Positions 9,395 through 26,201 of a stretch of DNA of 64,000 bases are shown one piece after another. The translations under genes were made by a program, and so were the position numbers. The DNA comes from Flavobacteriales bacterium (lineage in GTDB: Bacteria > Bacteroidota > Bacteroidia > Flavobacteriales > UBA1820). A model generated the notes under the pieces. It made no database searches, had not been told where the DNA came from, and saw nothing but the letters and a program-made list of their open reading frames with translations. Numbering within the stretch: the stretch's first letter is position 1; every line of letters starts with the position of its first letter. Location: positions 680 to 64,679 of the forward strand of contig JAGAUI010000008.1 of the NCBI GenBank assembly GCA_017620815.1, read 5' to 3'.

Positions 9395-9775
9395 TTACCT
9401 ATCGGGATATAATTCGTCTAGTATGGCGAGTCTTTTCTGCCACTTGTTCCACGAACGTTTATATGTGTTCATCACACATCGACTCATGCTATAACGCAAG
9501 ACACACATCTCGTCATCAACTCTTTCTGTTACCCTTAAAAGTGGCAGTACGAGGTCTGTATAACGAGTAATGATTGCTCCACGTGGTACGCTACGGGCAT
9601 ATTCTATCTCTAGTATTGAAAGATAGACATCGGCAGCGGCATTTTTATCTCCTTCAGCAATTAGAGATTTGGCTTCGCTTTCTTTTTCTGGGTAATAGAT
9701 TTTTATCCCACCTCTCTTTTTAAGGTAAGCTCCCACTATCACCAATGCCGATACTATGATTACAAGTGTTATCAC
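9395..9775 (-). CDS. hypothetical protein with N-terminal membrane anchor
   Basis: 126-aa ORF with a GTG start, preceded by a TACATTTG -7 box at about 9795-9802 (minus strand). Confidence 0.6.
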   Translation of the reverse strand: MITLVIIVSALVIVGAYLKKRGGIKIYYPEKESEAKSLIAEGDKNAAADVYLSILEIEYARSVPRGAIITRYTDLVLPLLRVTERVDDEMCVLRYSMSRCVMNTYKRSWNKWQKRLAILDELYPDR

Positions 9776-9859
9776 AATACTTATCTTTTAAATGCAAATG
9801 TAGTTCTTTATATCCTTACATCAAAAAATTACATTATACTTATAACCTTACCCCCAAAA

Positions 9860-9895
9860 ACGCCAGCTCCGCTGGCGTGCCTTCCATGGAAGGCA
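9860..9895. repeat. two abutting GC-rich palindromes (REP-like)
   Basis: ACGCCAGC-tcc-GCTGGCGT directly followed by TGCCTTCC-at-GGAAGGCA in an AT-rich intergenic region. Confidence 0.5.
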
Positions 9896-9910
9896 AACTC
9901 CCTCACATTA

Positions 9911-9943
9911 AAAAATGCGGCTCGCACAGCGAGCCGCATTTTT
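9911..9943. terminator. intrinsic terminator downstream of the amidase gene
   Basis: AAAAATGCGGCTCGC-aca-GCGAGCCGCATTTTT. Confidence 0.85.
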
Positions 9944-9959
9944 CAGATGTCTATTTATT

Positions 9960-11678
9960 TTATTTGTTTTTATATGGTTTTGGTGCTGGAGCATCACTTC
10001 CTGGCACTTCAGAAAGGAATTTTTCTACGCCCCATATCACACGTTCCATCATCTCCTGACGGAAAGCAGGGTCTTGTATCTGTGCAGACTCTTGAACCAC
10101 ATTAAGGAATAGAGTTTCTACCAGCACACATAGATATTCGGTAGGTTGGTTAAGGGAGAAATTAAAGTTACCTATGTTACCAAAGTTCTTAACGTCCATC
10201 TCCAGCAGGCTGTTAAGTATAGCTACCGATAGAGCTTTATGGCTCAAATGACGATAATATGTGCTTGTTCCTTTGAGGTCTAGCGGAGTACCACCTGCAT
10301 TACAGTGGATAGATATAAGTATATCGGCAGCTGCTTCACGGGCTTTATCACGGCGGTCGCTCATATCTACATTTTCCTTACCTTCACGAGTAAGGACAAC
10401 CTTTGCTCCTTTATCTTCCAGTATCTTTTTAAGACGTTGTACCATATCATATGTGAGTTCGTCTTCGTTGGTTCCGTTTATGGTACGGGCTCCTGTGTAT
10501 GGTTTTCCGTGTCCTGCGTCAAGGGCTATGGTAAGATTGCTTATCTTAAGGCTTTCTGGACGATGTTTTACATTGACAACCAAACTTTTTCCTTCATAAG
10601 ACACGCTATAACCCCATATCTGTGGGTCTTTAAGGTCTATGTCTATACGTATAACATCATCCTGTTCCTGGATATAGCTTACGTTTTTGATAGCTTTGTA
10701 GTCTTTATGTGTTATCCAGTTACTGTTACATGCTGCTCCATATAGACGTACCGATATACGTGATAGAGCTACATCTTCTGTTATGGTATATGGCAATTTT
10801 TCATCCAGCCCTACCATAACTCTATCATATCCTTTGGAAGATGATATATGCCAAGAACCTGTAAGAGATGTAGGAGCAAATGTACCGTTTGGCTGTATTT
10901 CCATATATGACACTGGTATCCAAGCATTGATATTTTTGGAAAGGCGTACTTTATACATATCATTTACACGCCCTATGATACGCATACATATTCCTTCTGA
11001 AAGATAGTTAATCTTGGCACCACCTAGACGGTCGCTACCTAGTCCGTAGTTAAGGTATGCTCCTTCTGTAGTTTTACCTACTAGATATGAAGATTCCATC
11101 ATCTTAACATCGGCTTTAACAGGTTGTGCTACTGTTTCATCACCTGTGGCTATAACCACTTCTATAGGTGCATCAAACGCTTTGTCGTCTTTTTTTACCA
11201 CATATACACCCTGGTATGTGCCTTTATCATCTACCTCATAAAGAGGTTCCCCTCCCAACCAAGTGAGTTTGGCTCCAGGCAGCGAAGATAAGCGTATGCG
11301 TATCTCATCTCCTTCTACTACTTCCATACGAGAAGCAGGGGAAATTTTCACATTTTTAATGATAGGAGTAGTGATAGGTTCTGGCACTGGACGGTCTGCA
11401 TAGACTGTAGTGTACTCTACTTTATCACCATTTGATGCTTTTACAGTGATTTTGTTCACTCCTTTTTCAAATTTGATACGAGCAGCCCATTCACCTGTGT
11501 AATAGATAGGATATTCTACGCCTTGAACTGTTACGGTACCGTTTTTGGGGCCAACACCCATTATATTCATAGTAGCAGAATATGTAGTATCTGGCAGTCC
11601 GCGGGATACTTTGAGTTCCTGTGCAGACATCTGGATGGCTAGCACTGCACACGTAATAGTAAATAATAATTTTTTCAT
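9960..11678 (-). CDS. secreted N-acetylmuramoyl-L-alanine amidase (Amidase_3)
   Basis: Signal peptide from the ATG at 11678 (MKKLLF). The C-terminal domain carries the Zn/catalytic motifs DAGHG, SIHCNA and LVETLF. Confidence 0.9.
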   Translation of the reverse strand: MKKLLFTITCAVLAIQMSAQELKVSRGLPDTTYSATMNIMGVGPKNGTVTVQGVEYPIYYTGEWAARIKFEKGVNKITVKASNGDKVEYTTVYADRPVPEPITTPIIKNVKISPASRMEVVEGDEIRIRLSSLPGAKLTWLGGEPLYEVDDKGTYQGVYVVKKDDKAFDAPIEVVIATGDETVAQPVKADVKMMESSYLVGKTTEGAYLNYGLGSDRLGGAKINYLSEGICMRIIGRVNDMYKVRLSKNINAWIPVSYMEIQPNGTFAPTSLTGSWHISSSKGYDRVMVGLDEKLPYTITEDVALSRISVRLYGAACNSNWITHKDYKAIKNVSYIQEQDDVIRIDIDLKDPQIWGYSVSYEGKSLVVNVKHRPESLKISNLTIALDAGHGKPYTGARTINGTNEDELTYDMVQRLKKILEDKGAKVVLTREGKENVDMSDRRDKAREAAADILISIHCNAGGTPLDLKGTSTYYRHLSHKALSVAILNSLLEMDVKNFGNIGNFNFSLNQPTEYLCVLVETLFLNVVQESAQIQDPAFRQEMMERVIWGVEKFLSEVPGSDAPAPKPYKNK

Positions 11679-11890
11679 ATAAGTAATGATATTGGTATTT
11701 ATATTTATTCTTGTGATAAGCAAATGTAATAACTTTTGGACATAAATATCTACTATACTTTATCTTTTTTTTGACTCAAATTCCACATATAAACTTGTTA
11801 AATTTTTAACAAAATATATTATTTTATTTAAAAAACATCATTTTTATCACCATACATTTGCATCTGAAAAAAAACACACATTATAACCCG

Positions 11891-13126
11891 ATGATTAAAT
11901 TATCTCAATCACAAGAATACAGCATAGGAGGTGTTTCTGCCACAGAAATAGCCAAAGAGTACGGCACACCACTATATGTCTATGACATATCTACCATAGA
12001 ATCCCAATACAATAGACTAGATGCTGCTTTTTCATCCATTGGCAAACGCCGTATAAATTATGCTATGAAAGCATTGAGCAACATCAATATCCTACGCACC
12101 ATGCGTCGTTTGGGAAGTGGTATAGATGCCGTTAGCATTAACGAAGTGATGTTGGCATTAAAAGCAGGATTTGCTCCTTCAGACATCATTTATACCCCTA
12201 GCGGTGTAGATATGGAAGAGATAGACATAGCCGTAGAGTTGGGGGTAAACATAAACATAGACAGCATGGTAGCTCTAGAGGAGTTTGCTAGGCGTCATAA
12301 GGATACACCTGTAGGCATACGCATAACTCCCCACATAGTAGCTGGCGGCAATGCCAAGATATGCACAGGAGGTATTGACTCAAAATTTGGAATATCTATA
12401 CACTATCTAGACCGCGTAGAAGCTCTATCTCGTGAGACAGGACTTAAGATAAACGGCATACATATGCATACGGGCAGTGATATTTATGACGTAGATGTAT
12501 TTTTGCGTGGTGCCGAAATCCTCTTTAATGCAGCCTCTCGCTTTCCTGTAGAATACATAGATTTTGGTAGTGGATTTAAGGTACGTTATCGCGATACAGA
12601 CCGTGCTACAAATGTTGAATTACTGGGAGAAAAGCTATCGGCAGCGTTTAATGCCTTTTGTGAAAAAGCAGGACGTGATATATGCTTCATGATAGAACCC
12701 GGCAAATTCCTAGTGAGCGACAGCGGCACACTACTAGTAGGTGTAAACTGGGTGAAACAAGCTCCTGTAACCACATTTGCACAGGTAAACAGCGGTCTTA
12801 ACCACCTTATACGTCCTATGATGTATGACGCATACCACCACATAGTAAACATATCCAATCCTTTTGGAGAGATAAAAGACTATAACGTAACTGGATACAT
12901 ATGTGAAACAGACAATTTTGCACAGAACCGCCCTATAAACGAAATACGCAAGGGTGATGTCCTAGCCATAATGAATGCCGGTGCATATGGTTATACTATG
13001 GCTAGCATGTATAACAGTCGTTTCCGCCCTGCTCAAGTAATGGTCAAAGACGGTCGTTGCCATCTTATCTCTCGTCCCGACACTCTGGAAGATATACTTT
13101 CTACACAGATAGATTTGGGAGAGTAA
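11891..13126 (+). CDS. lysA: diaminopimelate decarboxylase
   Basis: Motifs YGTPLYVYD, YAMKA (PLP lysine), SKFG, HTGS, EPGKF and GYICETD. Start refined to ATG 11891, downstream of a TACATTTG box at 11853-11860. Confidence 0.96.
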   Translation: MIKLSQSQEYSIGGVSATEIAKEYGTPLYVYDISTIESQYNRLDAAFSSIGKRRINYAMKALSNINILRTMRRLGSGIDAVSINEVMLALKAGFAPSDIIYTPSGVDMEEIDIAVELGVNINIDSMVALEEFARRHKDTPVGIRITPHIVAGGNAKICTGGIDSKFGISIHYLDRVEALSRETGLKINGIHMHTGSDIYDVDVFLRGAEILFNAASRFPVEYIDFGSGFKVRYRDTDRATNVELLGEKLSAAFNAFCEKAGRDICFMIEPGKFLVSDSGTLLVGVNWVKQAPVTTFAQVNSGLNHLIRPMMYDAYHHIVNISNPFGEIKDYNVTGYICETDNFAQNRPINEIRKGDVLAIMNAGAYGYTMASMYNSRFRPAQVMVKDGRCHLISRPDTLEDILSTQIDLGE

Positions 13127-13147
13127 TAGCAAGATTTTTTTGAAAAT

Positions 13148-13177
13148 AAAAAAGCGGCAGCCTAAAGGCTGCCGCTT
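13148..13177 (-). terminator. intrinsic terminator closing the phage-like operon
   Basis: AAAAAAGCGGCAGCC-taaa-GGCTGCCGCTT; the long U-tract lies on the minus strand. Confidence 0.85.
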
Positions 13178-13253
13178 AATAAATACACTAACAACTCAAC
13201 ATTATTTATAAAAACTAACCCTAAAAATAAGAAATTCAATCTTTCAATCCTTC

Positions 13254-13742
13254 CTACTGCATAGAAAGAGGTGTTGCTATCACCTTTGCTTTGCCATCGG
13301 CTTTAAGGATAGTGGCAGTAACTGTAATCAAGAACATACCACTACGAGAGAACGAAGCATTGAATTTGGCCACTACCCTAGCACGAGGGATTTCTATCAC
13401 CATACCAGATTTTGGAGTAACACGTATGCTCATCTCTACAGTAGGTATGACCTCGGGAGCATTCCATGAGCCGTTATCTCCTTTATTTCCTCCTAGAAGA
13501 GATACCAGAGTATCTACATCGGCGTCCATTATAGAGAACGAAAGAATGATTTTACCGGGACGTGATACGCTTACTATAGGAGTATCACACTCTTCGGCAT
13601 AGTGTTCTATTTCTTCTGGTTCATTCTGTGTAAGGGTACATGAGTCTTGGTATGTCATACCTAGGACTTTATATTGGCTATCTTCTGCCTCTACTGCTTT
13701 GGCTTCTATTTTTGAAAGTCCAAATGTTGCTATACTTGCCAT
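13254..13742 (-). CDS. phage major tail (tube) protein
   Basis: 162 aa with patterns I recognise from Bacteroidota siphovirus tail tubes (GLSKIE, LGMTYQDSCTLTQ, FSIMDAD, WNAP, IPRAR). Lies directly after the tail terminator gene. Confidence 0.75.
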   Translation of the reverse strand: MASIATFGLSKIEAKAVEAEDSQYKVLGMTYQDSCTLTQNEPEEIEHYAEECDTPIVSVSRPGKIILSFSIMDADVDTLVSLLGGNKGDNGSWNAPEVIPTVEMSIRVTPKSGMVIEIPRARVVAKFNASFSRSGMFLITVTATILKADGKAKVIATPLSMQ

Positions 13743-13806
13743 TTTTTTAATTTATTAAAGGTTTATAATCTTATGATTGGTTTGGTATAATTTTACATTA
13801 GTTTAT

Positions 13807-14214
13807 CTAAAACGCTCCTCTCAAAGAGACACATATCTCCATATGGCAGCAGAACATATCGTCCTCACGAGAGAAACGTTGTGAATCTACCCACGATAGA
13901 CAGCCAGCATAGAATACTTCGTCTATCCCGTCAAATATAAGTCCAGATAGATATTCCAGACGTTTGAAGTCTGGCACCATATCTACGGCATCGGCTCGTG
14001 AAGAAAAGATAGGAGAAGAATAAATATCTATCTTGACCCTTGCCGTTTCTCCTGCACGAGATATAAAATCCTGAGCATAGATGACTATATCTTCTTTATC
14101 ACTACCAGCTGGACGTACAGATTTATAGACACCTCCTGTTATCTGCCGTGCCACCTCCAATGCCATTATACGATGATACACGTGTGAGAGTATCGAAAAA
14201 TGGGATTTTGTCAT
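13807..14214 (-). CDS. phage tail terminator/completion protein
   Basis: 135 aa with the motif ITGGVYKSVRPAGSDKEDIVI; lies immediately before the tail tube gene. Confidence 0.65.
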   Translation of the reverse strand: MTKSHFSILSHVYHRIMALEVARQITGGVYKSVRPAGSDKEDIVIYAQDFISRAGETARVKIDIYSSPIFSSRADAVDMVPDFKRLEYLSGLIFDGIDEVFYAGCLSWVDSQRFSREDDMFCCHMEICVSLRGAF

Positions 14215-14240
14215 ATCATATTAAAGGTTTGGGGTAAGTT

Positions 14241-14555
14241 TTATATCCACATTTTACAGCCTATGGGAGATGATATGAAACATCTAGCACGTCCTGTGGT
14301 AAGCAAGAATCCGTCTGCACCATCTAGGATTTTGATAGGAGTACCGTCTTTTATAGCCGGTGTTCCAGCAGGCATATATACCACATAACTATAACGATAA
14401 TCTTCGCCGCTGGATAGTACTATATGTTGTCCCGAACCATTGCGTACGGCTCGGCATATGCAGTGTTCGCTGTATGAGGGGAGTGATGATTCATTATTCC
14501 CATTATCCTGTTCTATGTCCATCACCTCTAGGACATTGTGATATAAATCAAACAT
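14241..14555 (-). CDS. phage head closure (stopper) protein
   Basis: 104 aa, beta-rich, with YSYVVYMP...GTPIKI...CKMWI; lies after the adaptor gene. Confidence 0.6.
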   Translation of the reverse strand: MFDLYHNVLEVMDIEQDNGNNESSLPSYSEHCICRAVRNGSGQHIVLSSGEDYRYSYVVYMPAGTPAIKDGTPIKILDGADGFLLTTGRARCFISSPIGCKMWI

Positions 14556-14579
14556 AATATACTTTTCTGTTTTATTTAA

Positions 14580-14903
14580 TTACCATATATGTGAACTGTC
14601 TTTTATAGCATTACCCGATGCTGTTATACACATATCTTCTACATGTCCATAACGTCTATAAATACTTTCGGCCATCTGGGCTAACATTTCTCTATCTTCT
14701 ATAGTGATAGAAAAACCATCCATAGTTACCGATGGTGTAGTTGATAACATCATATATACATCTGCACGGGCAAGCATAAAGGATTCGGTAGGGCCGCTGT
14801 ATGCAGCACCTCCATCTATGTTTCTGTCTATAAATATCCTCTCTAGATATTTTTCATCTAGTGGATAACCGACAGTCATCTTAAGAGCTTCTAGGATAGT
14901 CAT
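14580..14903 (-). CDS. phage head-tail adaptor/connector (DUF6706-like)
   Basis: 107 aa, helical, with MTILEALK...LARADVY...PSVT...IYRRYG; lies directly after the capsid gene. Confidence 0.65.
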   Translation of the reverse strand: MTILEALKMTVGYPLDEKYLERIFIDRNIDGGAAYSGPTESFMLARADVYMMLSTTPSVTMDGFSITIEDREMLAQMAESIYRRYGHVEDMCITASGNAIKDSSHIW

Positions 14904-14930
14904 AATTCCAATTTTTCTGAACGTAAAATA

Positions 14931-15002
14931 GCGACCGACTCTTTCTATGTGGACATCTTACCACACATCTCATACATACAGCCCACAAGAAAGAGCGGTC
15001 GC
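14931..15002 (-). promoter_or_regulatory. long stem-loop (attenuator or mRNA-stabilising hairpin) between capsid and neck genes
   Basis: GCGACCG(A)CTCTTTCT(A)TGTGG pairs with CCACAAGAAAGAGCGGTCGC, giving about 20 bp with two 1-nt bulges. It is followed by TATTTT on the minus strand. Confidence 0.6.
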
Positions 15003-15039
15003 ACAACTAACACACTTTATACACTATCATTACTATACA

Positions 15040-16116
15040 TTATTCTGCATTTGTATCATAGAGGTAACATCTGTCTGCATTACCCCATACAGGCAGAGCA
15101 TTTGCTATGCCTTTGGTTACTTCGGTAACAGGGTCTTCGGTAGAGTATTTTTTGATGAGGATATGTTCTTTTTTCACTTTGGTTGCCACGCCATCTACTA
15201 CCATTTCATCGGCCATAGGAGCGTGATATGTGTAACCGCACTTCATCTCTGGGACAAATGTAACTATACCTTTCTCCCATGGATTTACTGTCTGACGAGT
15301 TCCATCTGTTTTTTCTATAGTTACATATGTATCTATGATACGTATCTCTGGCAGACGATGAGCTACAAGAGCCATATTGACATCATCTACATTAGGAACT
15401 TTTATACGTCCTACCTGTGGCACCCATGAAGAACAGAAATCCACTGCTTCGTCTGTTGCCATCATGTTATAAAATGTATCTATATCCATAAACAGGTATT
15501 TGAGAAGGATACCTTCACCTGTGGCACGTTCTACCATAGCTCTTATATCTGAAATAGGAGTAGCAGTAGCTGCGTTTTCTGCCTTCCAAGCTACAGATGA
15601 TGATAGTTTATGTTCTGCAGGAACACCAAAATCAACCGATGTCTCGGTAACTATACCAGCATTGTTATCACTATCCAGTACAAATCCTCCTGTAGAAAGA
15701 GCTCTTAATGCCAACCATTCCAGACGAGCATTTATTCCCTTGAAACAGAAGTCTGTATCTCCATACACCCAAGCCATAAGGGCTCGCTGTCCTTCCTCGC
15801 TACCATAGTAGTACTGTAGGTGTTGATATTCGTTAAGGTCAGACTCTTCTTTTACACGAGTGATTTCTATCTTTGGTATCTTACCAGTGAGACGTTCTAC
15901 TACGTTGCGGGTCTTTTTGGGAGCGGCACTGTTATATGACACAACGTCGGCAGCTACATTTATGCCGTATTCGCCAGAAAGTGCTCGCCATGTAAGTGTA
16001 GGCGTAAACATCACTGGAAATATAGATGGATAATAAAATTCATCTAGTGTGTATGAATCCATTACCGCTTGCAAGTCATTTTGAGTAAACTCTTTTATCA
16101 AACTCTTTTTCATCAT
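15040..16116 (-). CDS. major capsid protein (HK97 fold, lambda gpE / Phage_cap_E-like)
   Basis: 358 aa with motifs ADVVSYNSAAP, IPKIEITR, RLEWLALRALSTG, VDFGVP, PISDI and DPVTEVTKG...LPV. Confidence 0.88.
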   Translation of the reverse strand: MMKKSLIKEFTQNDLQAVMDSYTLDEFYYPSIFPVMFTPTLTWRALSGEYGINVAADVVSYNSAAPKKTRNVVERLTGKIPKIEITRVKEESDLNEYQHLQYYYGSEEGQRALMAWVYGDTDFCFKGINARLEWLALRALSTGGFVLDSDNNAGIVTETSVDFGVPAEHKLSSSVAWKAENAATATPISDIRAMVERATGEGILLKYLFMDIDTFYNMMATDEAVDFCSSWVPQVGRIKVPNVDDVNMALVAHRLPEIRIIDTYVTIEKTDGTRQTVNPWEKGIVTFVPEMKCGYTYHAPMADEMVVDGVATKVKKEHILIKKYSTEDPVTEVTKGIANALPVWGNADRCYLYDTNAE

Positions 16117-16185
16117 TACTTAATTTTTGGTTTAACGGTTTATAAATTATTTCCTTTTTTGATTATAAAATAAATAAAAAAAGAT

Positions 16186-16698
16186 TTATTCTTTGAATTT
16201 TCCCATAAGAGGAGAATCGCTACGCATAGAGCGAATATAAGCCTCTACCGCACTACTATGTCCCTCATGACGTACAGCACCTTCAGGGCGGGAGATTTTG
16301 GAGATATTATGGTCATTCTGCTCTTGGAGGAATGATTTATATGCGGTCTGAATAGCATCGGCTGCTTCCTGCCAACTAGAGTGAGCATCATCTATTTCAA
16401 GGGTTGCTCTCCAGAAATACTCTGGGACTTCACGGGAAGTAAGTTCGTCTGCAAGAGCTTTTTTAAATCCTGCTATCACTTCTTCCTGTGAATGATATTC
16501 GGCTAATTCTTCCTCTGAAGCAGCCAGTTGCTCGTAACTACCTTTCAACACCTCCAAAAGAGGCACATACTGCTCATAGGCAGCCTCCTGTAACTGTATA
16601 TCATCGGGATTGTTTCCCTCTATAATAGAAGATAATGCAGTAAGGACACTTTCTTCTATCATAGGATAATCGGTTTTAAGTTTCTCTGAAATCTTCAT
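16186..16698 (-). CDS. putative capsid scaffolding protein
   Basis: 170 aa, acidic and helical/coiled-coil, immediately upstream of the major capsid gene. Confidence 0.55.
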   Translation of the reverse strand: MKISEKLKTDYPMIEESVLTALSSIIEGNNPDDIQLQEAAYEQYVPLLEVLKGSYEQLAASEEELAEYHSQEEVIAGFKKALADELTSREVPEYFWRATLEIDDAHSSWQEAADAIQTAYKSFLQEQNDHNISKISRPEGAVRHEGHSSAVEAYIRSMRSDSPLMGKFKE

Positions 16699-16758
16699 AC
16701 TTGTTTTATGGTTTGTGTTATTAAATAATTGGTTTTATTTTCTGTAATACAATCTTCA

Positions 16759-16766
16759 CAAATATA
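16759..16766 (-). promoter_or_regulatory. -7 box (TATATTTG), candidate internal promoter for scaffold-capsid-neck-tail genes
   Basis: TAnnTTTG match in the 97-bp AT-rich gap between terL and the scaffold gene. Confidence 0.55.
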
Positions 16767-16795
16767 CTAAATAATTATCAAATAAGAAAGAATTA

Positions 16796-18118
16796 TTAGA
16801 AAAATATTTCTAGAGTCTTTTTCTCCCCCACGTCTTTAAGTTCAAAATACATACGCATCATAAGTGCATCGGCTACGTCTGGCGAACGACCTAGATTTTC
16901 TTTCATCTCACGTTTTGACACTATAGATAGACGTTGAGCAACAGTAATATCGGCTGCTTTTATCTCTTGCATCTCTTCTATGATACGGTCTTTAAGACGT
17001 ACATCATCTACATTTATTCTTATCATAGAACGATTTACATAGTCTGCCCACAGGAAATAGCATTGGTTTTTGAGGTTGGAGAAATTCTGTTGTTTACCTC
17101 TTACCATTATAGGCGATGAATTATTTACAAATCCCTTACATCGCAACGTATCCACTACACCCCCACCTACTCCGTCTTCGTCACATATTACATGAGAGAG
17201 GAGGACTCCATGCACTGCACACATATCTCTTATAATAGCCGATGTTTCATCTACACCGCTTCTAGGCATTACCTTTATACTTTCACACATAAGACCGTAC
17301 CACAGGCATATGACAGTACTATCACTACCAAAACGAGCTATATCGGCTGTGATATATCTCTCATCTTTTTTCACCTCTCGTGGGGAGAACATATCTATGA
17401 TTTTATCATAGTTCATAAGTGCCGATGGGTCTTCGTCATACTCCCAAGAGCCATATAACAGCCTATCTCTAGAACGAGAATCAAGACCTTTGAGGCTATC
17501 CTTGTAATGTGATGAAATGTAAGGATTATCACCTACCAGCGAACTTATAAACCTTTTATCCTCGTCCAAAACACCTTCTTTCCACGGTTTATAAAAACGA
17601 TTATAAACATACCCTCTGGAAGGGTTACACGTTCCCAAAATCTTGGGTATGAGATTATAATCATTAAGTCTATACCTTATACGAGAACGAACTATATTCC
17701 ATGCTTTGAGAGATATCTGATTACACTCATCTATAAAGGCTCCCGTTACTTCCAGTGAACCCAATTCGTCAAAATCTGGGTCTGATGGTCGTGATTGGAG
17801 GGGTTTGAGTACTATGACAGATGATGTAGGACGCAAGAGGATTTCTCCACGGCTTTCGTTATAAGAAAAGGCATCGGCAGGGATATCCTGCATACGTGCT
17901 ACATAACGTAATGTATTGAGCGTAGTCTGTCTAAGTGTAGTAAGACGACTTCTTGCCACCAAATAACGGCTTTCTGGATACTTAAAAAGACATTTGAGTA
18001 CCCAGTAACACCCCAGTACAGATTTACCCCCACCCGCTCCACCTCCATAGAGGATTTCGCGGGTGGTAGCATCTTCTAGAAAGTCAAGAGCCTCTGTTTG
18101 TTTTATCGTCAGTTCCAT
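16796..18118 (-). CDS. terL: phage terminase large subunit
   Basis: Walker A GGGAGGGKS, Walker B AFIDE, coupling motif GTCNP, and nuclease motifs ADIARFGSD and SPDVADA are all intact. Confidence 0.93.
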   Translation of the reverse strand: MELTIKQTEALDFLEDATTREILYGGGAGGGKSVLGCYWVLKCLFKYPESRYLVARSRLTTLRQTTLNTLRYVARMQDIPADAFSYNESRGEILLRPTSSVIVLKPLQSRPSDPDFDELGSLEVTGAFIDECNQISLKAWNIVRSRIRYRLNDYNLIPKILGTCNPSRGYVYNRFYKPWKEGVLDEDKRFISSLVGDNPYISSHYKDSLKGLDSRSRDRLLYGSWEYDEDPSALMNYDKIIDMFSPREVKKDERYITADIARFGSDSTVICLWYGLMCESIKVMPRSGVDETSAIIRDMCAVHGVLLSHVICDEDGVGGGVVDTLRCKGFVNNSSPIMVRGKQQNFSNLKNQCYFLWADYVNRSMIRINVDDVRLKDRIIEEMQEIKAADITVAQRLSIVSKREMKENLGRSPDVADALMMRMYFELKDVGEKKTLEIFF

Positions 18119-18539
18119 AACTTTTACGTTCGTTCCACACTACTGTCGTTGGAGTATTTTCCATCGCCGTATGATTTATGTTAAGACCTAGTAATTTGGA
18201 GCGTTGTTCATTACATCGTCTTATTTCAGATAGATAACGAGCATCGCCACCGCCTTCGTCAAGAGATTTTGACTCCTCCCAAGCCTGCCATAATTCAGCC
18301 TCCAATGCGTCTATTTTTTTTAATTCCAATGCTCGCATTATCTTCTGGTCCTCTATCGTACTATTTTCTCCCCATGACTCTAGAATCTCAGAAAGAAGTC
18401 TATTTAGTTTTCTAGGATACATCTTTTCTCCCGTTAGATTATGTACACGAGCCATTATCTTGGCTTTTGAATAGCCTTTTATGTAGCATTCGGCTATTAT
18501 CTCTTTTACTCTTTCTTTTTCAAATTCTTTTTCACTCAT
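18084..18539 (-). CDS. putative terminase small subunit
   Basis: 151 aa, helical, with an N-terminal HTH-like segment and LWQAWEESK...GDARYL...RSKLLGL. Overlaps the terL start by 35 nt. Confidence 0.7.
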   Translation of the reverse strand: MSEKEFEKERVKEIIAECYIKGYSKAKIMARVHNLTGEKMYPRKLNRLLSEILESWGENSTIEDQKIMRALELKKIDALEAELWQAWEESKSLDEGGGDARYLSEIRRCNEQRSKLLGLNINHTAMENTPTTVVWNERKSYGTDDKTNRGS

Positions 18540-18581
18540 CGTTTATCCTTCACATTTGTTATCAATAAAGAAATTTATTTA

Positions 18582-18848
18582 TTAAAAAATATATACTATC
18601 TCGTCTTCACATTGGTCAAATAACGTGTCTATGAAAAAATCCTCCAATGCCCTTTCAGATGGTAAGACATGGCGAAATTTCTTTTTACTCTTCTTTCCAC
18701 CCTTGCATTTTACAGGTTCTGATACCCAAGTTACATCATCTACCTTACGACGTTTCATAGTCATGGAAGCCTCTATCTTTTTAAGCTCATCTAGTCTTTC
18801 TATGGCTATCTTACGCTGCTCTCTGAATTCTTCTTCTGTAATAATCAT
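18582..18848 (-). CDS. hypothetical protein (phage-like, basic middle and acidic tail)
   Basis: 88-aa ORF co-oriented with terS, with an AT-rich leader. Confidence 0.6.
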   Translation of the reverse strand: MIITEEEFREQRKIAIERLDELKKIEASMTMKRRKVDDVTWVSEPVKCKGGKKSKKKFRHVLPSERALEDFFIDTLFDQCEDEIVYIF

Positions 18849-18878
18849 TGCTTTTTTGATAATTTTAATTATATAAAA

Positions 18879-19130
18879 TTATAATTTATTATTTTCACGA
18901 CGTTTATCAATTACCCTTGTCCTATTTATAGAGTTGAGTAATACATCGCGTACAGTATCTTGGTAACGAGCATAGGCCTCTCTTATGAGTTCCACATCGT
19001 TATCACATAGATGTAATCTATTTTTAAGAATATAGTCTGTGGGTATCCCTATGTATGATACCACACCATTTTCACAGATGGGATAATCCAGTTTCATCTG
19101 CCTTAATTGTACATATGTGCTTCTTTTCAT
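18879..19130 (-). CDS. hypothetical protein, first gene of the phage-like operon
   Basis: 83-aa ORF downstream of a -7 box at 19180-19187. Confidence 0.6.
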   Translation of the reverse strand: MKRSTYVQLRQMKLDYPICENGVVSYIGIPTDYILKNRLHLCDNDVELIREAYARYQDTVRDVLLNSINRTRVIDKRRENNKL

Positions 19131-19179
19131 AACAACTATAAAATTAATACAATCACTATATTTTAGAGTTTTAGCCCTA

Positions 19180-19187
19180 CAAATATA
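19180..19187 (-). promoter_or_regulatory. -7 box (TATATTTG) for the phage-like operon
   Basis: TAnnTTTG match about 50 nt upstream of the first ORF. Confidence 0.55.
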
Positions 19188-19327
19188 TCAATTTTTGTAT
19201 AAATGAAAAGAAATTGCTACAAATTTTTTTTCACATAAAAACAGACGTATTATTGACAAATAAGATGATTTGATAAAATAATCAAAAAAACAAATTCAAA
19301 AAATTGACTTATATAGACCAAATATGC

Positions 19328-19335
19328 TATTTTTG
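19328..19335 (+). promoter_or_regulatory. -7 box (TATTTTTG) for the divergent XRE regulator
   Basis: TAnnTTTG match with a TTG ending 21 nt upstream (-33-like). Confidence 0.5.
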
Positions 19336-19377
19336 AACTAGAAAAACAACACAATATATGTAAATCCACACTATCTT

Positions 19378-19641
19378 ATGCCTAAATTAAAAAATCCCGA
19401 AATCCAAAAGGAAATAACTCATAGAGTTATAAGTTCCATAGAAAGACTCATAGAACTAGGATTGGTACGCAACCAAAAAGAACTATGCCTTGCCTCTGGA
19501 TATAAAGAAGCCAACCTATCCAAAGTAATGAATGGTGAACGCCAAGCACCACTTATGCTACTTCACTTCCTGTCTTTTTCATACGGCATCTCTACCGAAT
19601 GGCTAATACTAGGAAATGGTACTATGTTTAAAAACAAATAA
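19378..19641 (+). CDS. XRE/CI-like helix-turn-helix regulator (no peptidase domain)
   Basis: NQKELC...ANLSKVMNGER...YGISTEWLILGNGTMF is a typical Cro/CI HTH pattern; 87 aa. Confidence 0.85.
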   Translation: MPKLKNPEIQKEITHRVISSIERLIELGLVRNQKELCLASGYKEANLSKVMNGERQAPLMLLHFLSFSYGISTEWLILGNGTMFKNK

Positions 19642-19657
19642 TTATTAAAATATCCAC

Positions 19658-19694
19658 ATAAAAAAGCTCGCCCCCGTGGGGCGAGCTTTTTTAT
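19658..19694. terminator. bidirectional intrinsic terminator
   Basis: ATAAAAAAGCTCGCCCC-cgt-GGGGCGAGCTTTTTTAT between convergent genes. Confidence 0.9.
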
Positions 19695-19714
19695 ATAAGT
19701 ATTATCTATTCGGT

Positions 19715-20341
19715 TTATTTTTTGGTAGTTACGAGAATCACACCATTTTCACTACCACCACCATATAGGCTGGCTGTACCGTCTTTAATAACCTCTACTT
19801 TATCTATCATATTTGGGTCAAGGTTTGCTGACTCTAGGTTATCTACACGTGTACCATCCACCAAATATAGGTTACATCTATTACCGCGGAAGAACACATA
19901 ACCATCTTCATAGATAACGCCTGGGGATTTACTTTCTACTATACTTTTAATAGATTTATAACCAGTAACTTCATCTGCACGCATAGTTGCTTTGGCAGTA
20001 GTTGCTGTATGCTGGTCTATAAGACCTTTGGCTATAGCCTTGTCCATATCAGAGAACTGAAGTGTTACATCTAGCACAGTCTGTTTTTTACCTACTTTGA
20101 TGTATTGAGATACCACTCCATCACCAGCTACTATAACGTTGAGTTCTTTTGGTCCCAATTCCACAGAATATTTACCTTCTGCATCGGTATAAGCAACTTT
20201 TTTGGTTCCCTGTACAGCGACTTTAACACCTTTTATAGGAGCATCACCAAATTTTACAGTTCCAGTAAGAGTACGGTTTTGGGCAAATACTACCGCAGAT
20301 ACAGCCATAAGCGATAGAGCAAATAATGTTTTTAATTTCAT
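19715..20341 (-). CDS. secreted CarboxypepD_reg-like + TonB-receptor plug domain protein (no beta-barrel)
   Basis: Signal peptide, then TDAEGKYS, then plug motifs LYLVDG and EVIKDGTASLYG...NGVILVTTKK at the C-terminus. Confidence 0.82.
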   Translation of the reverse strand: MKLKTLFALSLMAVSAVVFAQNRTLTGTVKFGDAPIKGVKVAVQGTKKVAYTDAEGKYSVELGPKELNVIVAGDGVVSQYIKVGKKQTVLDVTLQFSDMDKAIAKGLIDQHTATTAKATMRADEVTGYKSIKSIVESKSPGVIYEDGYVFFRGNRCNLYLVDGTRVDNLESANLDPNMIDKVEVIKDGTASLYGGGSENGVILVTTKK

Positions 20342-20553
20342 CTTTAGTATTATTTAGCGTTATATAATTCTTATTCTTTGGTGCTCCAAATGTATAAATT
20401 TTTTTTAATCTCACCATCATATTAACATAATTTTATCATTTCTTCCATTCCCTCCCCACGATGTATAAAAATTGTTTCCACATATAGAGATAAATGAGTA
20501 TCTTTGCACGATTATAAATACATTACAATACACATAAATACACATATTATAAG

Positions 20554-21834
20554 ATGAATTCATTGGGAAGACACATACTAGTAGAGTTTTTCGGTTGCAA
20601 ACCCGAAATTATGAATGACGTAGCTGGCATAGAAAAATCTATGGTAGATGCTGCATCTCGAGCAGGAGCTACTGTTATAAATTCTACATTTCACCATTTT
20701 TCACCCTACGGAGTATCTGGCGTTGTAGTGATACAAGAAAGCCATCTAGCCATACACTCATGGCCAGAATACGGTTATGCTGCTGTGGATTTGTTTACAT
20801 GTGGAGAATCTGTTGACCCATGGATATCATTTGATTACCTCAAAGAAAAATTTGAAGCACAGAATTATTCTGCCATAGAATTGCGTCGTGGTTCTCGTGT
20901 TCTTCTCACTCAGCTAGACTTTGACCTAGCCTCTATGCGTGAACAGAATAAAAAACACACCAATCCTCAAATGTACACACGTAACGTATGGTTCACAGAC
21001 AAGGACGACAACCAAGCCCTTTCTTTACGCCATACAGGCGAAATCCTCTATGATGAGACATCTCCATACCAACGCACACGTGTTATAGACACATACGGCT
21101 ATGGCAAGGCTCTTACCATAGATGATATGTTTATGTGTACAGAACGTGACGAAGCCCACTATCACGAGATGATTTCTCACCCTGTAATGCTCGCTCACGG
21201 AGGAATTAAAAAAGTACTTATCATTGGCGGAGGAGATGGTGCCAGCGTACGCGAGATATGCCGTCACAAGGGGGTAGAGAAAATAGTAATGGTAGAGATA
21301 GACGCCAATGTAGTTGATGCCTGCAAAAAACACCTCCCACAGACAGCTGCCGCATTTGATGACCCACGCGTAGAACTTATCATAGGTGATGGTATAGCTT
21401 ATGTAGAGAATGCTCCTCAAGGAAGTTTTGATTACATCATAGTAGATGGTAGCGACCCTGTAGGCCCTGCCGAAGGTCTTTTCTCTGAAAAATTCTACAC
21501 AGACTGCCGCAACGCTCTTACAGAAGGCGGTGTTCTTATCACACAGGGAGAATCACCTCTATTTAACGAACGTACATTTGCAGAACTTAACGCTTGTCTT
21601 AAACGCATATTCACTCCTTCACAGGTACGCACCATGCTATTCAGCATACCTACATACCCTACTGGTCTATGGAGCTTCCAGACAGCAGTAAAAGGAGAAC
21701 TAGATATACCTGCACTAGACGTATCAGTGATAAAAGAATTTGAAAAAGAAAACACACTTAAATACTACAATAGTGACATACATCGTGCGGCATTTGCTCT
21801 GCCCAACTATGTAAAAAAGATGCTCAATGAGTAA
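20554..21834 (+). CDS. speE: fused S-adenosylmethionine decarboxylase (SpeD) / polyamine aminopropyltransferase (SpeE)
   Basis: N-terminal GRHILVE...[13 protein letters not shown]...DLFTCG (pyruvoyl E-S cleavage site). C-terminal YHEM, IGGGDG, VEID and DGSDP. Confidence 0.93.
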
Positions 21835-22861
21835 TAAAGAGACACATAATAATTTTAACCCAAATGATACGGGTGTGAATAATGGGAACTTTTTCGGGTT
21901 CCCATATTCATTACAACAGGCCGATGTAGTAGTCTATCCAGTGGAATGGGACGTTACCACTTCCTATGGCGGAGGAGCTTCCCGTGGGCCAAAAGCGATA
22001 CTTGATGCATCTCCACAACTGGATTTTTATGATTGGGATTATCCACATGCTTGGGAGAATAAGATAGGTACAGCCTATGCCAATGAAGCTATCTCTTCTG
22101 CCAATGCTCCTATGCGTAAACTTGCAGAAAGCGTTATATCCCACCTAGAAAATGGAGGCGATAAAACAGCTGTCATAAAAGACATTGAAACCATAAATAA
22201 AGCCTCACGAGAGATGGTAGAGCGTGTAAAGAAAGACACTAGAGCTTTACTTGATGATGGTAAAAAAGTAGTTCTATTGGGTGGAGACCACTCTACTCCG
22301 CTGGGATATATGCAATCATTGGCAGAAAGTGGAGAAAAATTTTCTATCCTGCACATAGACGCCCACGCAGACCTACGTGATGCATATGAAGGATTTGAGT
22401 ATTCACATGCCTCTATAATGTTCAATGCTCTTAAAATTCCACAAGTAGAACGCCTGGTACAGGTGGCTATACGCGATACATGTCCAGATGAAATAGAACT
22501 GGTTAAAAAAAGCGGTGGAAGGGTAAGACAGTTCCCATATCCTCTTCTTGCTGCAAGAGAATTCTGTGGTGAGAAATGGCACGATATATGCCATTATATA
22601 ATAGAAGCATTGGGAGAGAGAGTGTATGTGAGCTTTGACATAGACGGTCTAGACCCATCGCTGTGTCCTGGCACAGGAACTCCTGTGGCAGGAGGTCTTA
22701 CATTCTACCAAGCAACATATCTACTGCTAATGCTTAAAAATTCTGGACGTGAAATAATAGGAGCAGACCTTAACGAAGTATGTCCTTCATCTGAAGAGAA
22801 TGAATGGGATGCCAATGTAGGAGCTCGTATGCTTTATAAACTATGCTCCCTCATATCATAA
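21827..22861 (+). CDS. speB: agmatinase / ureohydrolase
   Basis: Metal-binding motifs GGDHS, DAHADL and SFDIDGLDP...PGTGTP. Overlaps the speDE stop. Confidence 0.88.
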
Positions 22862-22888
22862 TATCACAGAAATAAAATTTGACACATA

Positions 22889-22921
22889 AAAATCCCAAAG
22901 ACGACGAGCCTTTGGGATTTT
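22889..22921 (+). terminator. probable terminator of the polyamine operon
   Basis: AAAATCCCAAAG...CTTTGGGATTTT hairpin, followed by a TACATTTG -7 box at 22927-22934. Confidence 0.6.
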
Positions 22922-22966
22922 ATATCTACATTTGTAGCATAGATAACCACATCATTAAACATATAT

Positions 22967-24595
22967 ATGAATTCATCTCTATTGAAATACATACGTATTG
23001 CACTAGCAAGCGTTGTTTTTATACTCATCACAGCATATTTTCTGGATTTTTCATCTAGCATTCCGAACGTCCACATACAGGACATACAACTAATACCCGC
23101 CATACTACACTCTATGTGGATAGCAGTAGGAATTCTACTGTTGCTCACATTTGTGATGGGACGTGTGTACTGTTCTACACTATGTCCTCTAGGGATAATG
23201 ATGGACATCATATCCTTTACAAGCGGACGTGGTAAAAAGAAAAATTTTAAAAACAAAAACTCTCGTTACTCTTACACCAAGGCCCACAACATATTACGTT
23301 ATACGCTACTAGTGGTGTGTATAGCAACATATTTTATATCAAGTGCTTTTATAGTCATACTAGCCCTAGACCCTTATTCCAACTACGGACGCATAGCACA
23401 GAACGTATTTGCACCTATATATTACAGCATAAACAACACCATTAGCTGGTTTGCTAGTGAAGTAGGACTACACGGCACTTATATGATGGGATATGACACT
23501 TTTTCGTGGATAGGAAGCGGAGTATCATTTGCTGTTTTGCTCTTAGTAGGCTATATGGCTTATACCCGCGGACGCCTATGGTGTAACACTATATGTCCCA
23601 CAGGTGCATTTTTGAGTCTATTGTCTCGTTTTTCACTACTCAAGATAACTCTAGACAAAAAGATGTGTACGTCTTGTGGGATGTGTGCATCGGCATGTAA
23701 ATCTAGCTGTATAGACCACAAAAATAAAACCGTAGATAATTCACGATGTGTAGTATGCTTTAACTGCCTAGGGAGATGTTCTCGTGGTGGAGTGAAATAC
23801 AGTCTTTCACTTCCTTGGAAAAAGGATAAAAAGCCTGCCGATACTTCAGATGTAAAAAAAGACTGCAATACTATATCTCGTCGCGATTTCCTAGCCACTG
23901 GTGCTGCCATCACCTTCACTGCCATAGCTGCCAAAGCCGCCTCCAAAGACACAGCTAAATCCCAACGCCGAGTATGTGCCCTGGTAAAAGAATGCCCTCG
24001 CGGACGCGGTTGCAATTTTAATAGAATATGTTATGTAGAGGGTGAACGACTACCTGTAGCCCCTCCCGGAGCATTGGGTATAGAGATATTCAATGATGCT
24101 TGTACAGGCTGTCATCTATGTATCGCCAAATGTCCTTCGGGGGTATTGGTACCATCTATCACACAGTACGGGGCTCGTGGTTTCCTCCAACCCGTCATGC
24201 GTTATGATGGAGGACACTTCTGTGCCTATGACTGCAATGTGTGTGGAGATGTATGTCCTACCGGTGCTATACGCCCTCTTACAGTAGAACAAAAACATTC
24301 TGTACAGGTAGGTATAGCACACCTTTTCCCCAGCAAATGTGTGGCATTTGCTCGTGATTATGACTGCGGAGCTTGTGCAGAACATTGCCCAGTGGGGGCT
24401 GTACACATGGTAGTAAACAGTCGTGGAATACCTGTCCCTGAAATCATCCCCGAGGTATGTATAGGATGTGGAGCTTGTGAACAGATATGCCCAGAAAAAG
24501 CCATACTGGTCTATGGACATAAAGTTCACCGTCGTGCCCAAGTCCCAGAAAAAGAAGAGGCAAAAGAGATAAATCTAGACGGATTTGGATTTTAA
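22967..24595 (+). CDS. membrane-bound polyferredoxin (NapH/MauN-like + NapF/MauM-like 4Fe-4S protein)
   Basis: TM helices with two CxxxCP motifs, multiple CxxCxxCxxxC clusters and an internal SRRDFL motif. Confidence 0.88.
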   Translation: MNSSLLKYIRIALASVVFILITAYFLDFSSSIPNVHIQDIQLIPAILHSMWIAVGILLLLTFVMGRVYCSTLCPLGIMMDIISFTSGRGKKKNFKNKNSRYSYTKAHNILRYTLLVVCIATYFISSAFIVILALDPYSNYGRIAQNVFAPIYYSINNTISWFASEVGLHGTYMMGYDTFSWIGSGVSFAVLLLVGYMAYTRGRLWCNTICPTGAFLSLLSRFSLLKITLDKKMCTSCGMCASACKSSCIDHKNKTVDNSRCVVCFNCLGRCSRGGVKYSLSLPWKKDKKPADTSDVKKDCNTISRRDFLATGAAITFTAIAAKAASKDTAKSQRRVCALVKECPRGRGCNFNRICYVEGERLPVAPPGALGIEIFNDACTGCHLCIAKCPSGVLVPSITQYGARGFLQPVMRYDGGHFCAYDCNVCGDVCPTGAIRPLTVEQKHSVQVGIAHLFPSKCVAFARDYDCGACAEHCPVGAVHMVVNSRGIPVPEIIPEVCIGCGACEQICPEKAILVYGHKVHRRAQVPEKEEAKEINLDGFGF

Positions 24596-24610
24596 GAGGA
24601 GGGAAGATTT

Positions 24611-25282
24611 TTAATAAGTTGCTCCCATACTAGAATTTATCATTATGCGTGTTTTTTTACCCGCATCACTGTTCTCATTGTTACGTCCATCTTTAAGACG
24701 AATGATGACTGCTCCGTTACGGGCATCACGACCATAGATAACACAGTCTGCCATATTTTTAATGATAGTAATACTATACACATCATAGGGATTGGCTGCT
24801 TCAAGGGAAGGCACGCGGACTCCGTCAACCATATAGTACATACACATCTGCCCTCTTATCACTACATAATTTCCCGATGTAAAACAACCCGGAAAACGAC
24901 CGTCTATCATCTTGGAAAATGTGTTATCATCTATAGTAGGATAGTATGTATCACCCTTTACCATCTCTACCACAGGAGCAGTGTTTATCTTAAATGATAT
25001 ATTTTTTGAAGTATCCTTTACAGATACACTTTTGCTTTTGTGCAGTATATCATTATAATAGACTTTTATCTTTTTATCATCTGGGGAGAGATTTATGGCG
25101 TATGTCCCATCTGCAGATGTAAGTGTATGGGATTCGCTTTTATTGGCACGTATTACAGCTCCTTTGACAGGATTTTTTTCCATATCTACCACACTACCCT
25201 TTATAATATAGTTCTGGGCATAGATAGATATACTTTCTATCATAGTGGTTAAAATCATCACACAAAATACCACTCTTTTCAT
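24611..25282 (-). CDS. second CarboxypepD_reg-like + TonB plug domain protein (no beta-barrel)
   Basis: Signal-like N-terminus (start refined to 25282), TSADGTY, YYMVDG and IYGRDARNGAVII. Confidence 0.75.
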   Translation of the reverse strand: MKRVVFCVMILTTMIESISIYAQNYIIKGSVVDMEKNPVKGAVIRANKSESHTLTSADGTYAINLSPDDKKIKVYYNDILHKSKSVSVKDTSKNISFKINTAPVVEMVKGDTYYPTIDDNTFSKMIDGRFPGCFTSGNYVVIRGQMCMYYMVDGVRVPSLEAANPYDVYSITIIKNMADCVIYGRDARNGAVIIRLKDGRNNENSDAGKKTRIMINSSMGATY

Positions 25283-25477
25283 AATCATATTATTTTTTAT
25301 CGTTTGATATGTCTTCACTGCCTCAAATATAGACATAAATATCCCTCTATCATTATTTTTATAATTTATTTAACCTAAAAGTATCTCAAAACAGATTAAC
25401 ACACTGGAATTATGCAGATTAAGAGAAAAAACTCTACATTAGCATATATAAAAACAGAACTTAAAAACCCTACCAAA

Positions 25478-26164: not shown

Positions 26165-26172
26165 ACATCATA

Positions 26173-26201
26173 AAAAAGGCAGCCCTTCGGGCTGCCTTTT
26201 T
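26173..26201. terminator. bidirectional intrinsic terminator
   Basis: AAAAAGGCAGCCC-ttc-GGGCTGCCTTTTT between convergent sod and psd. Confidence 0.9.

Follow-up and report, generated by a model that had tools for sequence, protein, structure and literature searches.

The window analysed here, a stretch of 64,000 nucleotides from contig JAGAUI010000008.1 of a Flavobacteriales bacterium, carries between positions 13254 and 19641 a compact cluster of phage-type head, packaging, neck and tail genes. We think it probable that this cluster is the largest locus of an old, domesticated, host-controlled particle system, derived from a siphovirus, divided among many loci and resembling a gene transfer agent (GTA), a name that we use as a working label. 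Its morphogenetic genes occupy at least seven separate places on the chromosome, and the predicted set of head, packaging, neck and tail genes looks complete. The original prediction, made from the window itself, saw in the cluster a possible head and neck core of a split-locus GTA, and genomic tests support that idea: genes that appear to supply the remaining parts lie at other loci in all nine species compared. In what follows, G000 is the genome of the window, a bin of 1.73 Mb that is 99.5% complete, and G001 to G008 are eight congeneric species, uncultured gut Flavobacteriales that include UBA1820 and Candidatus Merdimorpha stercoravium; C stands for a contig and L for a fetched locus.

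The cluster consists of ten intact open reading frames (ORFs) on the minus strand and one divergent XRE-like ORF on the plus strand (Table 1), and the ORF listing agrees in this with what had been described. The widest gap between co-oriented ORFs, 136 bp, separates the gene of the major capsid protein (MCP) from the ORF of 107 amino acids (aa), and is exactly the upper limit first reported; the terminators announced for both ends are found as hairpins at 13177-13152 and 19697-19655. The flanks are a lysA-type decarboxylase gene on one side and a Plug-domain ORF on the other. As had been noticed, the edges hold neither att repeat nor tRNA: a tRNA scan of the window was empty, and a repeat search gave no convincing direct repeat flanking the cluster, none above chance. 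Family searches detected no integrase, replication or lysogeny module at this locus, and the only two tyrosine recombinases of G000 are on contigs that hold no system gene. What would mark an intact or recently deleted prophage, namely an integrase, an att or tRNA site, replication and lysogeny modules, and contiguity, is thus absent, and the parts are scattered.

An assembly artefact, which had been named as a danger, is contradicted by the data: one 27.8-kb contig from an independent bovine-gut run covers positions 11500-21000 with 57 differences, and since this single contig crosses both junctions of the cluster, both are real. DNA of the window was also found in sequencing runs that are animal gut metagenomes, from 12 studies; short contigs of runs X19 and X20, guessed to be RNA, cover the cluster in part, and lysA and the Plug ORF just as well.

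The genes first listed as missing, those for the portal, the tape measure protein (TMP) and the tail tip, are indeed missing from this locus, but not from the genome. Searching G000 with every ORF from 31 related prophage loci and from another 22 loci of phages or viruses led to five further places. One copy each of the capsid and portal genes was found, and the portal is of the SPP1 type alone, the lambda-type and HK97-type portal families having no match in G000. The TMP aligns only to positions 1209-1692 of the 1708 of phrog_9959 and is thus a C-terminal homologue. In related prophages, homologues of portal and MCP share a locus, the portal homologue being 32-51% identical to the portal of the system (44-51% in 17 of the 19 related loci that have one) and usually 2-8 kb upstream of the MCP homologue. 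Because these prophages hold portal and MCP together, the scattered genes and the cluster appear to come from one kind of phage.

The portal, TMP, minor head, chaperone, distal-tail-like (Dit) and tail-tip genes are open frames in all nine species, on different contigs in the source genome, and their neighbours are fixed: the portal gene adjoins tig in 6 of 8 congeners, the TMP gene an Omp85-like gene in 8, the chaperone gene rsmD in 7 and the Dit gene susD in 8, each miss being a contig end. The length of the TMP stays between 482 and 511 aa across the genus, and the tail-tip frames range from 1107 to 1860 aa, with identities of 44-75% and a variable C-terminal part. On a single contig of G001, C1, the chaperone lies at 32 kb, the TMP at 113 kb and the tail tip at 438 kb, so that three genes are 80 kb and 325 kb apart, and the remaining parts are on other contigs. 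The scattering is ancestral and fixed in the genus.

As for the cluster, its eleven genes are colinear and full-length in all eight congeners as far as the contigs reach, with an MCP that is single, intact and 81-94% identical. Metagenome relatives with an MCP of 66-85% identity exist as well. The expectation that relatives would carry it next to lysA held for the cluster itself and failed for its position. In five species (G001, G003, G005, G006 and G007) it sits between homologues of C31:5217-6359 and C33:33277-33888 of G000, and in G004 its XRE side adjoins homologues of C20:26906-28445, a third context. Since congeners carry the cluster elsewhere, the lysA/Plug neighbourhood is derived. 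Contig C33 stops 451 bp past the gene that flanks the cluster in other species, and this end, together with the neighbours that differ between G000, at window 19700-26200, G004 and the five others, points to a rearrangement in the G000/G004 lineage.

A sceptical explanation holds that we are looking at one or more decaying, functionless prophage remnants: a recent deletion in the window, and chance leftovers elsewhere. The missing integrase, replication and lysogeny modules would suit it, as would a TMP and a Dit shorter than those of phage relatives. It has to account, however, for pieces that are open in nine species out of nine, while the host neighbours of these genes are just 44-71% identical and synonymous divergence (dS) is saturated between clades; these dS values also exclude near-identical strains posing as species. 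The ratio of nonsynonymous to synonymous divergence (dN/dS), estimated in the three unsaturated species pairs, is 0.00-0.17 for most system genes, against 0.02-0.14 for the host neighbour genes. The exceptions are the minor head gene (0.15-0.39), ORF A (0.25 in one pair) and the tube gene (0.31 in one pair, at a dS of 0.03). With every ratio between 0.00 and 0.39 and all frames open, the genes are under purifying selection instead of decaying, as those of GTAs are. The earlier suggestion that the host selects to keep the module intact is borne out both by the open frames in all congeners and by ratios far below 1 in the gene-by-gene comparison that had been proposed. Given in addition a frameshift site and a promoter motif, described below, that are kept at the nucleotide level despite the saturated dS between clades, we hold decay to be extremely improbable.

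Inheritance follows the host. Concatenated system genes and concatenated host neighbours give the same tree topology, and the proposed comparison of phage-gene and host trees thus ends in congruence; across the deep splits the MCP, at 81-87% identity, is better conserved than trigger factor, at 64-71%. These are chromosomal, phage-derived structural genes inherited vertically, the pattern known from GTAs. Such inheritance also bears on whether the cluster could be a phage satellite or other helper-dependent element, similar to phage-inducible chromosomal islands (PICIs) or their capsid-forming relatives (cf-PICIs), that borrows its missing parts from an infecting phage. Taken alone, the locus is like some satellites in having no portal and no tail-tip gene. 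Yet it is without integrase, att site or tRNA, the features by which a satellite is recognised were not found, and it is the host chromosome itself that supplies the missing parts, from fixed places. MCP and portal, moreover, were found in none of 52 other genomes of the order, from 17 other families. We give a satellite next to no chance.

A different kind of evidence comes from the tail chaperone gene. In nine species out of nine, a slippery A_AAG_GGN lies within about 40 invariant nucleotides of this gene, and a -1 frame, open for at least 102 codons, extends 212-215 nucleotides beyond the stop of G. A programmed -1 frameshift that yields G and GT chaperones, encoded upstream of the TMP, is characteristic of the siphovirus tail assembly module, and it is found here, though the chaperone gene does not adjoin the TMP gene. 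The G/GT arrangement of phage tail assembly genes is said to have been described by Xu and co-workers in 2004.

The loci also share a promoter motif, ATTTCYTTTTTGATWAT, whose block form is TTG, 5-6 nucleotides, and wTATTTCYTTTTTGATTATATTtG. With at most two mismatches, the 19-nucleotide motif has four sites in the 1.73 Mb of G000, all just upstream of the portal, TMP, minor head and DUF5675 genes; its exact core occurs three times, compared with 0-3 times, and in most cases not at all, for 20 shuffles. In the window, TTTTTGATWAT has three copies, and each of them falls in an intergenic space of the cluster. Over the nine genomes, the exact 17-nucleotide form has 58 sites and the reversed pattern none, and a comparison of coordinates places 48 of the 58 next to system genes. 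The block stands upstream of the portal, Dit and TMP genes in all nine species (a GACTAT variant being counted for the last), and of the minor head and tail-tip genes in seven each; variants precede the chaperone and scaffold-like genes. Upstream of ORF A, we take the conserved block GATATATTTGTAGGG to be the -7 element of the operon promoter, on the strength of what is known of Bacteroidota promoters.

It would be natural to see in this motif a late promoter of the ancestral phage. For the sampled relatives, that idea was rejected: related loci of phages and prophages, 1.59 Mb in total, contain no match to the extended motif, and to the core only eight weak one-mismatch matches in coding-like contexts. 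The motif appears to belong to the domesticated system rather than to the phages sampled.

The other ten exact sites (loci L198-L207 in all) precede genes that are not among the known parts of the system: G001:C1:5600-9400; G002:C1 and C29; G005:C103; G006:C13 and C34; G007:C3, C30 and C43; and G008:C102. Behind them come small, beta-rich-looking proteins followed by TPR lipoproteins, with a 156-aa protein in G002, G005 and G008; these genes match no Pfam family and have no homologue in G000 at E 1e-5 except for a weak lipoprotein match. They may be further members of the regulon or clade-specific lysis genes.

For lysis, the search for parts elsewhere, which yielded portal, TMP, tail tip, chaperones and Dit in nine species out of nine, fell short. 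A candidate cassette of three genes lies at C12:17848-19122; the products are a coiled-coil protein with one transmembrane segment, a protein of the DUF5675 family, and a third with a lipobox and a transmembrane segment near its C-terminus, and the cassette looks like a lysis module; against PDB sequences, the best E of the DUF5675 protein is only 0.63. The cassette is present in six of the nine species, in one of them with a stop codon, and the three species without it carry the 156-aa protein behind the same motif. Two genes away from the cluster, window positions 9960-11723 encode an Amidase_3 protein of 587 aa that matches endolysin PHROGs and is probably a cell-wall amidase of the host.

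The proteins of the cluster are identified with unequal confidence. The large terminase (TerL) is 48% identical to that of Flavobacterium phage 11b, and has no match among PDB sequences. Invariant in seven orthologues are GGGAGGGKS (25-33), GAFIDE (D130, E131), D259, D313/E314/D315 and D414/D417, which we take to be the Walker A and Walker B motifs and the acidic residues of the nuclease; with this naming of the motifs, the claim that TerL keeps its ATPase and nuclease motifs stands. The AlphaFold model of the tail tube has siphophage tube proteins as its top Foldseek matches (E 8e-7 to 1e-3), among the best those of Douge, Bxb1, YSD1 and lambda gpV, and the tube profile has no match among PDB sequences. 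The adaptor-like protein is 31% identical to the ORF that follows the MCP in locus L039, and in related prophages its slot is occupied by an ORF of 103-107 aa. No Pfam or PHROG family matches the scaffold-like protein, which is 36-72% identical in all eight congeners, with a dN/dS of 0.08-0.11 in the three unsaturated pairs.

That the 151-aa ORF is the small terminase (TerS) is moderately supported. Its profile search gathers 965 distant relatives, and among those sampled, 41 of 42 belong to one PHROG, some with helix-turn-helix (HTH) or Terminase_5 families; its model is all-helical, and the top 14 Foldseek matches are all small terminases, at weak E values of 0.05-0.8. It has no similarity to the TerS of Flavobacterium phage 11b, and a word-based homologue search returns members of the genus only. 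The XRE-like protein, without a Pfam match, is 71-84% identical in the five congeners whose contig reaches its gene.

How would such a system work? A regulator, perhaps the conserved XRE-like protein or the two small leading ORFs, would turn on the motif-bearing promoters jointly. Proheads would be built from the portal, the scaffold-like protein, the capsid and the minor head protein, and filled with DNA by TerS and TerL; the closure and completion proteins would then attach a short tail. In this tail the tube protein would assemble on a TMP that has one third of the length usual for phages, helped by G/GT chaperones, and a minimal Dit would be joined by a tail-tip protein that is both long and variable. 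The particles would be released by a lysis cassette that varies. With genes 80 and 325 kb apart in G001, it is unlikely that a single head could carry the set, and it follows that the cargo would be host DNA or some defined segment, and not a phage genome. A tail that is reduced and whose specificity evolves would agree with the short TMP, the minimal Dit and the variable tail tip. A tailed particle that is selected, probably co-regulated, predicted to package DNA and apparently unable to carry its own genes corresponds to the genomic definition of a GTA-like system.

However, particles may be domesticated for purposes other than gene transfer. One alternative is a particle for killing or lysis, similar to PBSX, or for the delivery of a defined cargo, in which packaging of host DNA would be incidental. 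It draws on the same architecture and the same evidence of selection, and it would explain well a long tail tip whose C-terminal part varies, as expected under receptor or arms-race pressure, and lysis genes that differ between clades. Against killing, TerS, TerL with its invariant nuclease and ATPase residues, and the portal are under purifying selection and are not obviously needed for that function. We consider this alternative unlikely on the whole, while the data presented here fit both 'transfer' and 'kill'.

Hosts are known, in general, to keep individual phage genes for defence, and one may imagine that the structural genes poison the assembly of related incoming phages and make no particles of their own. 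The relatives of these genes are Bacteroidota phages, a point in favour of such a device. What is kept is nevertheless a whole coherent set, with chaperone frameshift, terminase catalytic residues and common promoter, far beyond the needs of interference, and we judge an anti-phage device very unlikely.

Several observations weigh against a domesticated, GTA-like system. All the genomes are metagenome bins of uncultured bacteria, and the system is known from genes alone. The names 'scaffold' and 'adaptor' come from position, and TerS from weak fold evidence. No holin or endolysin is common to the nine species, no family search having been aimed at holins, and the truncated TMP and Dit could mean a crippled tail and not a short one. 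G000 and G004 are without a good copy of the motif ahead of the tail-tip gene, and the main cluster has moved in their lineage. These two species, the closest of the nine, also differ more in system genes than in most host neighbours: the dS of these genes is mostly 0.56-2.5, whereas four of the six neighbours compared have lower values (tig 0.52, rpoZ 0.49, ompA 0.27, susD 0.30), and the terminal branches of G000 and G004 are longer in the system-gene tree, an excess of dS that other close pairs do not have. The lineage may have exchanged alleles or evolved faster.

A few other observations concern the surroundings of these genes. The last 20 residues of the minor head frame (C16:1-60) recur with 100% identity at the end of contig C21 (61695-61754), and the gene probably continues there, which would bring it near the 1113-1234 aa of most other species. 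As further parts, C12:32577-32969 (130 aa) and C16:2700-3224 (174 aa) were rejected, looking like non-genes by composition, and so was C12:36387-37361 (324 aa, 3' of the tail-tip gene), found in G004 only among the available flanks. A 321-aa N6/N4 DNA methyltransferase at G000:C24:43086-44051 is similar to methyltransferases of phages (phrog_67 2e-55) and is matched by ORFs of related prophages, with no adjoining copy of the motif seen. More distant second copies exist in two species: a chaperone, Dit and TMP clustered at G003:C114:5137-6461; a tail tip, Dit and DUF5675 clustered at G006:C52:69085-77979; and a portal of 27% identity at G006:C80:1856-3115. They look like pieces of ordinary prophages. 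Long antisense frames of 457-556 aa over MCP and TerL in several congeners, at L012:9908-11311 (-), L016:7954-9624 (-) and 9736-11310 (-), and L015:9527-10900 (+), are probably an effect of codon usage. Homologues of ComEC and DprA are present and, since 10-11 of 14 control genomes match them too, do not discriminate.

Table 1. Features of the cluster in the window, in order of position, followed by the parts found on other contigs of G000 (ORF A and ORF B are the small leading ORFs).
Feature	Position	Strand	Place, evidence or conservation
Terminator hairpin 3' of tail tube gene, shared with convergent lysA-type gene	13152..13177	-	11-bp stem, 8 GC pairs, T run
Tail tube protein, 162 aa	13254..13742	-	phrog_6767 8e-39; AlphaFold2 pLDDT 82; Foldseek siphophage tubes
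Tail completion/terminator-like protein, 135 aa	13807..14214	-	phrog_5597 4e-10; phage005b 'tail completion protein' E 8e-6
Head closure protein, 104 aa	14241..14555	-	phrog_13251 2e-12; phage005b 'head closure protein' E 3e-6
Adaptor-like protein, 107 aa	14580..14903	-	named by position; phrog_32776 1e-4
MCP, gpE type, 358 aa	15040..16116	-	Phage_cap_E 1e-20; phrog_29 7e-48
Shared motif TTTTTGATTAT, inverted, between scaffold-like and MCP genes	16156..16166	+	exact 17-mer at same place in G004
Scaffold-like acidic protein, 170 aa	16186..16698	-	position only
Internal promoter-like motif variant ahead of scaffold-like gene	16759..16785	-	related block upstream in 9/9 species
TerL, 440 aa	16796..18118	-	Pfam Terminase_3 3e-7; phrog_2 1e-33
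TerS candidate, 151 aa	18084..18539	-	overlaps TerL; position, helical model, Foldseek
Motif core, one mismatch, ahead of TerS	18561..18574	-	
Small ORF B, 88 aa	18582..18848	-	no family match; 7/8 congeners (G002 contig ends first)
Shared motif TTTTTGATAAT, inverted, between ORF A and ORF B	18853..18863	+	exact 17-mer at same place in G004
Small ORF A, 83 aa, first gene of operon	18879..19130	-	no family match; 7/8 congeners
Conserved block GATATATTTGTAGGG upstream of ORF A	19175..19189	-	ATATTTGTA kept in 6/6 aligned species
Shared motif TTTTTGATTAT in XRE/ORF A divergent region	19278..19288	-	kept in 6/6 aligned species (GACTAT in one)
XRE-like small regulator, 87 aa	19378..19641	+	phrog_9710 3e-12 and repressor PHROGs
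Hairpin between XRE-like gene and Plug-domain ORF	19655..19697	.	20-bp stem
Portal, SPP1 type, 476 aa	C38:7794-9224		between tig-clpP-clpX and RND efflux operon; SPP1_portal 7e-48
TMP, 482 aa	C8:37160-38608		between Omp85-like gene and rpoZ; phrog_9959
Tail chaperone G, 158 aa	C22:22611-23087		between beta-propeller gene and rsmD; overlapping -1 frame
Dit, 143 aa	C24:11820-12251		between OmpA-family gene and susD
Tail-tip protein, 1115 aa	C12:33022-36369		after lptD; Prophage_tail; phrog_19846 3e-168
Minor head protein, at least 852 aa	C16:1-2556		frame runs off short contig

GTAs are known from few lineages, mostly Alphaproteobacteria. If the GTA-like reading is true, a GTA of Bacteroidota in bacteria of ruminant, bird and human guts widens the range over which capsid-mediated gene exchange is to be expected. 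Programs that find prophages and GTAs by clusters of genes would miss singleton portal, tape measure and chaperone genes; with the 17-nucleotide motif, the regulon can be sought directly and its regulator put to the test. The system would also serve as a natural experiment on how a virus genome may be dismantled and stay functional. A stronger proposal, to which we give an even chance, is that this is the first GTA of Bacteroidota, of independent siphophage origin and the most fragmented bacterial case, with singletons scattered before the radiation of the genus and a regulon held together by one promoter or operator motif that evolved in the host. In agreement with the original statement that no Bacteroidota GTA had been characterised, none appears in the literature searched or among the hosts listed in the excerpted part of PMC12946183, whose supplements might list more.

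The closest comparison is with the GTA of Rhodobacter capsulatus (RcGTA), which, according to the sections of PMC5026251 that we used, has at least 24 genes at five loci, with local synteny to host genes. RcGTA and its relatives in Rhodobacterales are, like the system described here, phage-derived, vertically inherited, under purifying selection and divided among several loci, which are co-regulated or, here, share a motif that suggests co-regulation; in both, loci lie hundreds of kb apart, and the particle cannot, or here presumably could not, carry its own genome. The two systems also differ. The core head and tail genes of RcGTA form one cluster of 17 ORFs and about 15 kb (same sections of PMC5026251), whereas portal, minor head, chaperones, TMP, Dit and tail tip are here singletons, each at its own place; and the activity of RcGTA has been demonstrated, whereas this system is known from its genes. 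The gpE-type capsid and nearest relatives among Bacteroidota phages point to an origin independent of RcGTA, whose proteins were not directly compared; the fold search with the tube returned a single RcGTA entry, at rank 43.

PBSX of Bacillus, VSH-1 of Brachyspira, BaGTA of Bartonella, Dd1 of Desulfovibrio, VTA of Methanococcus and FpGTA of Faecalibacterium are likewise chromosomal sets of tailed-particle genes without a replicating phage. These occupy one or two loci, in contrast with the at least seven found here, with singletons under one shared promoter motif. FpGTA, an element of a gut commensal with a main operon and a second one, is called the first GTA in the human gut in the part of PMC12946183 (2026) on which we rely.

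On the phage side, we compared Porphyromonas phage005b, the Riemerella RAP44-like phages, Flavobacterium phage 11b and Cellulophaga phi10:1. Phage005b has homologues of the MCP (36%), the portal (44%) and the tube (34%), and the gene order MCP, adaptor, closure, completion, tube is the same in temperate siphophages of Bacteroidota. In those phages the genome is one contiguous unit of 36-54 kb (phage005b has 48.7 kb) that includes genes for integrase, replication and lysis, and the TMP is 1357 aa long, whereas the loci of this system have no integrase, replication or lysis genes, and its TMP is 482-511 aa long.

Finally, in the bracoviruses of parasitoid wasps, viral structural genes are dispersed in the host genome, no longer packaged, and co-expressed. 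If the system is what it seems, it would be, by analogy, a bacterial counterpart of the wasps that bear polydnaviruses and have viral genes dispersed in their genomes, a likeness in architecture only, with a eukaryotic host and an unrelated virus on the other side.

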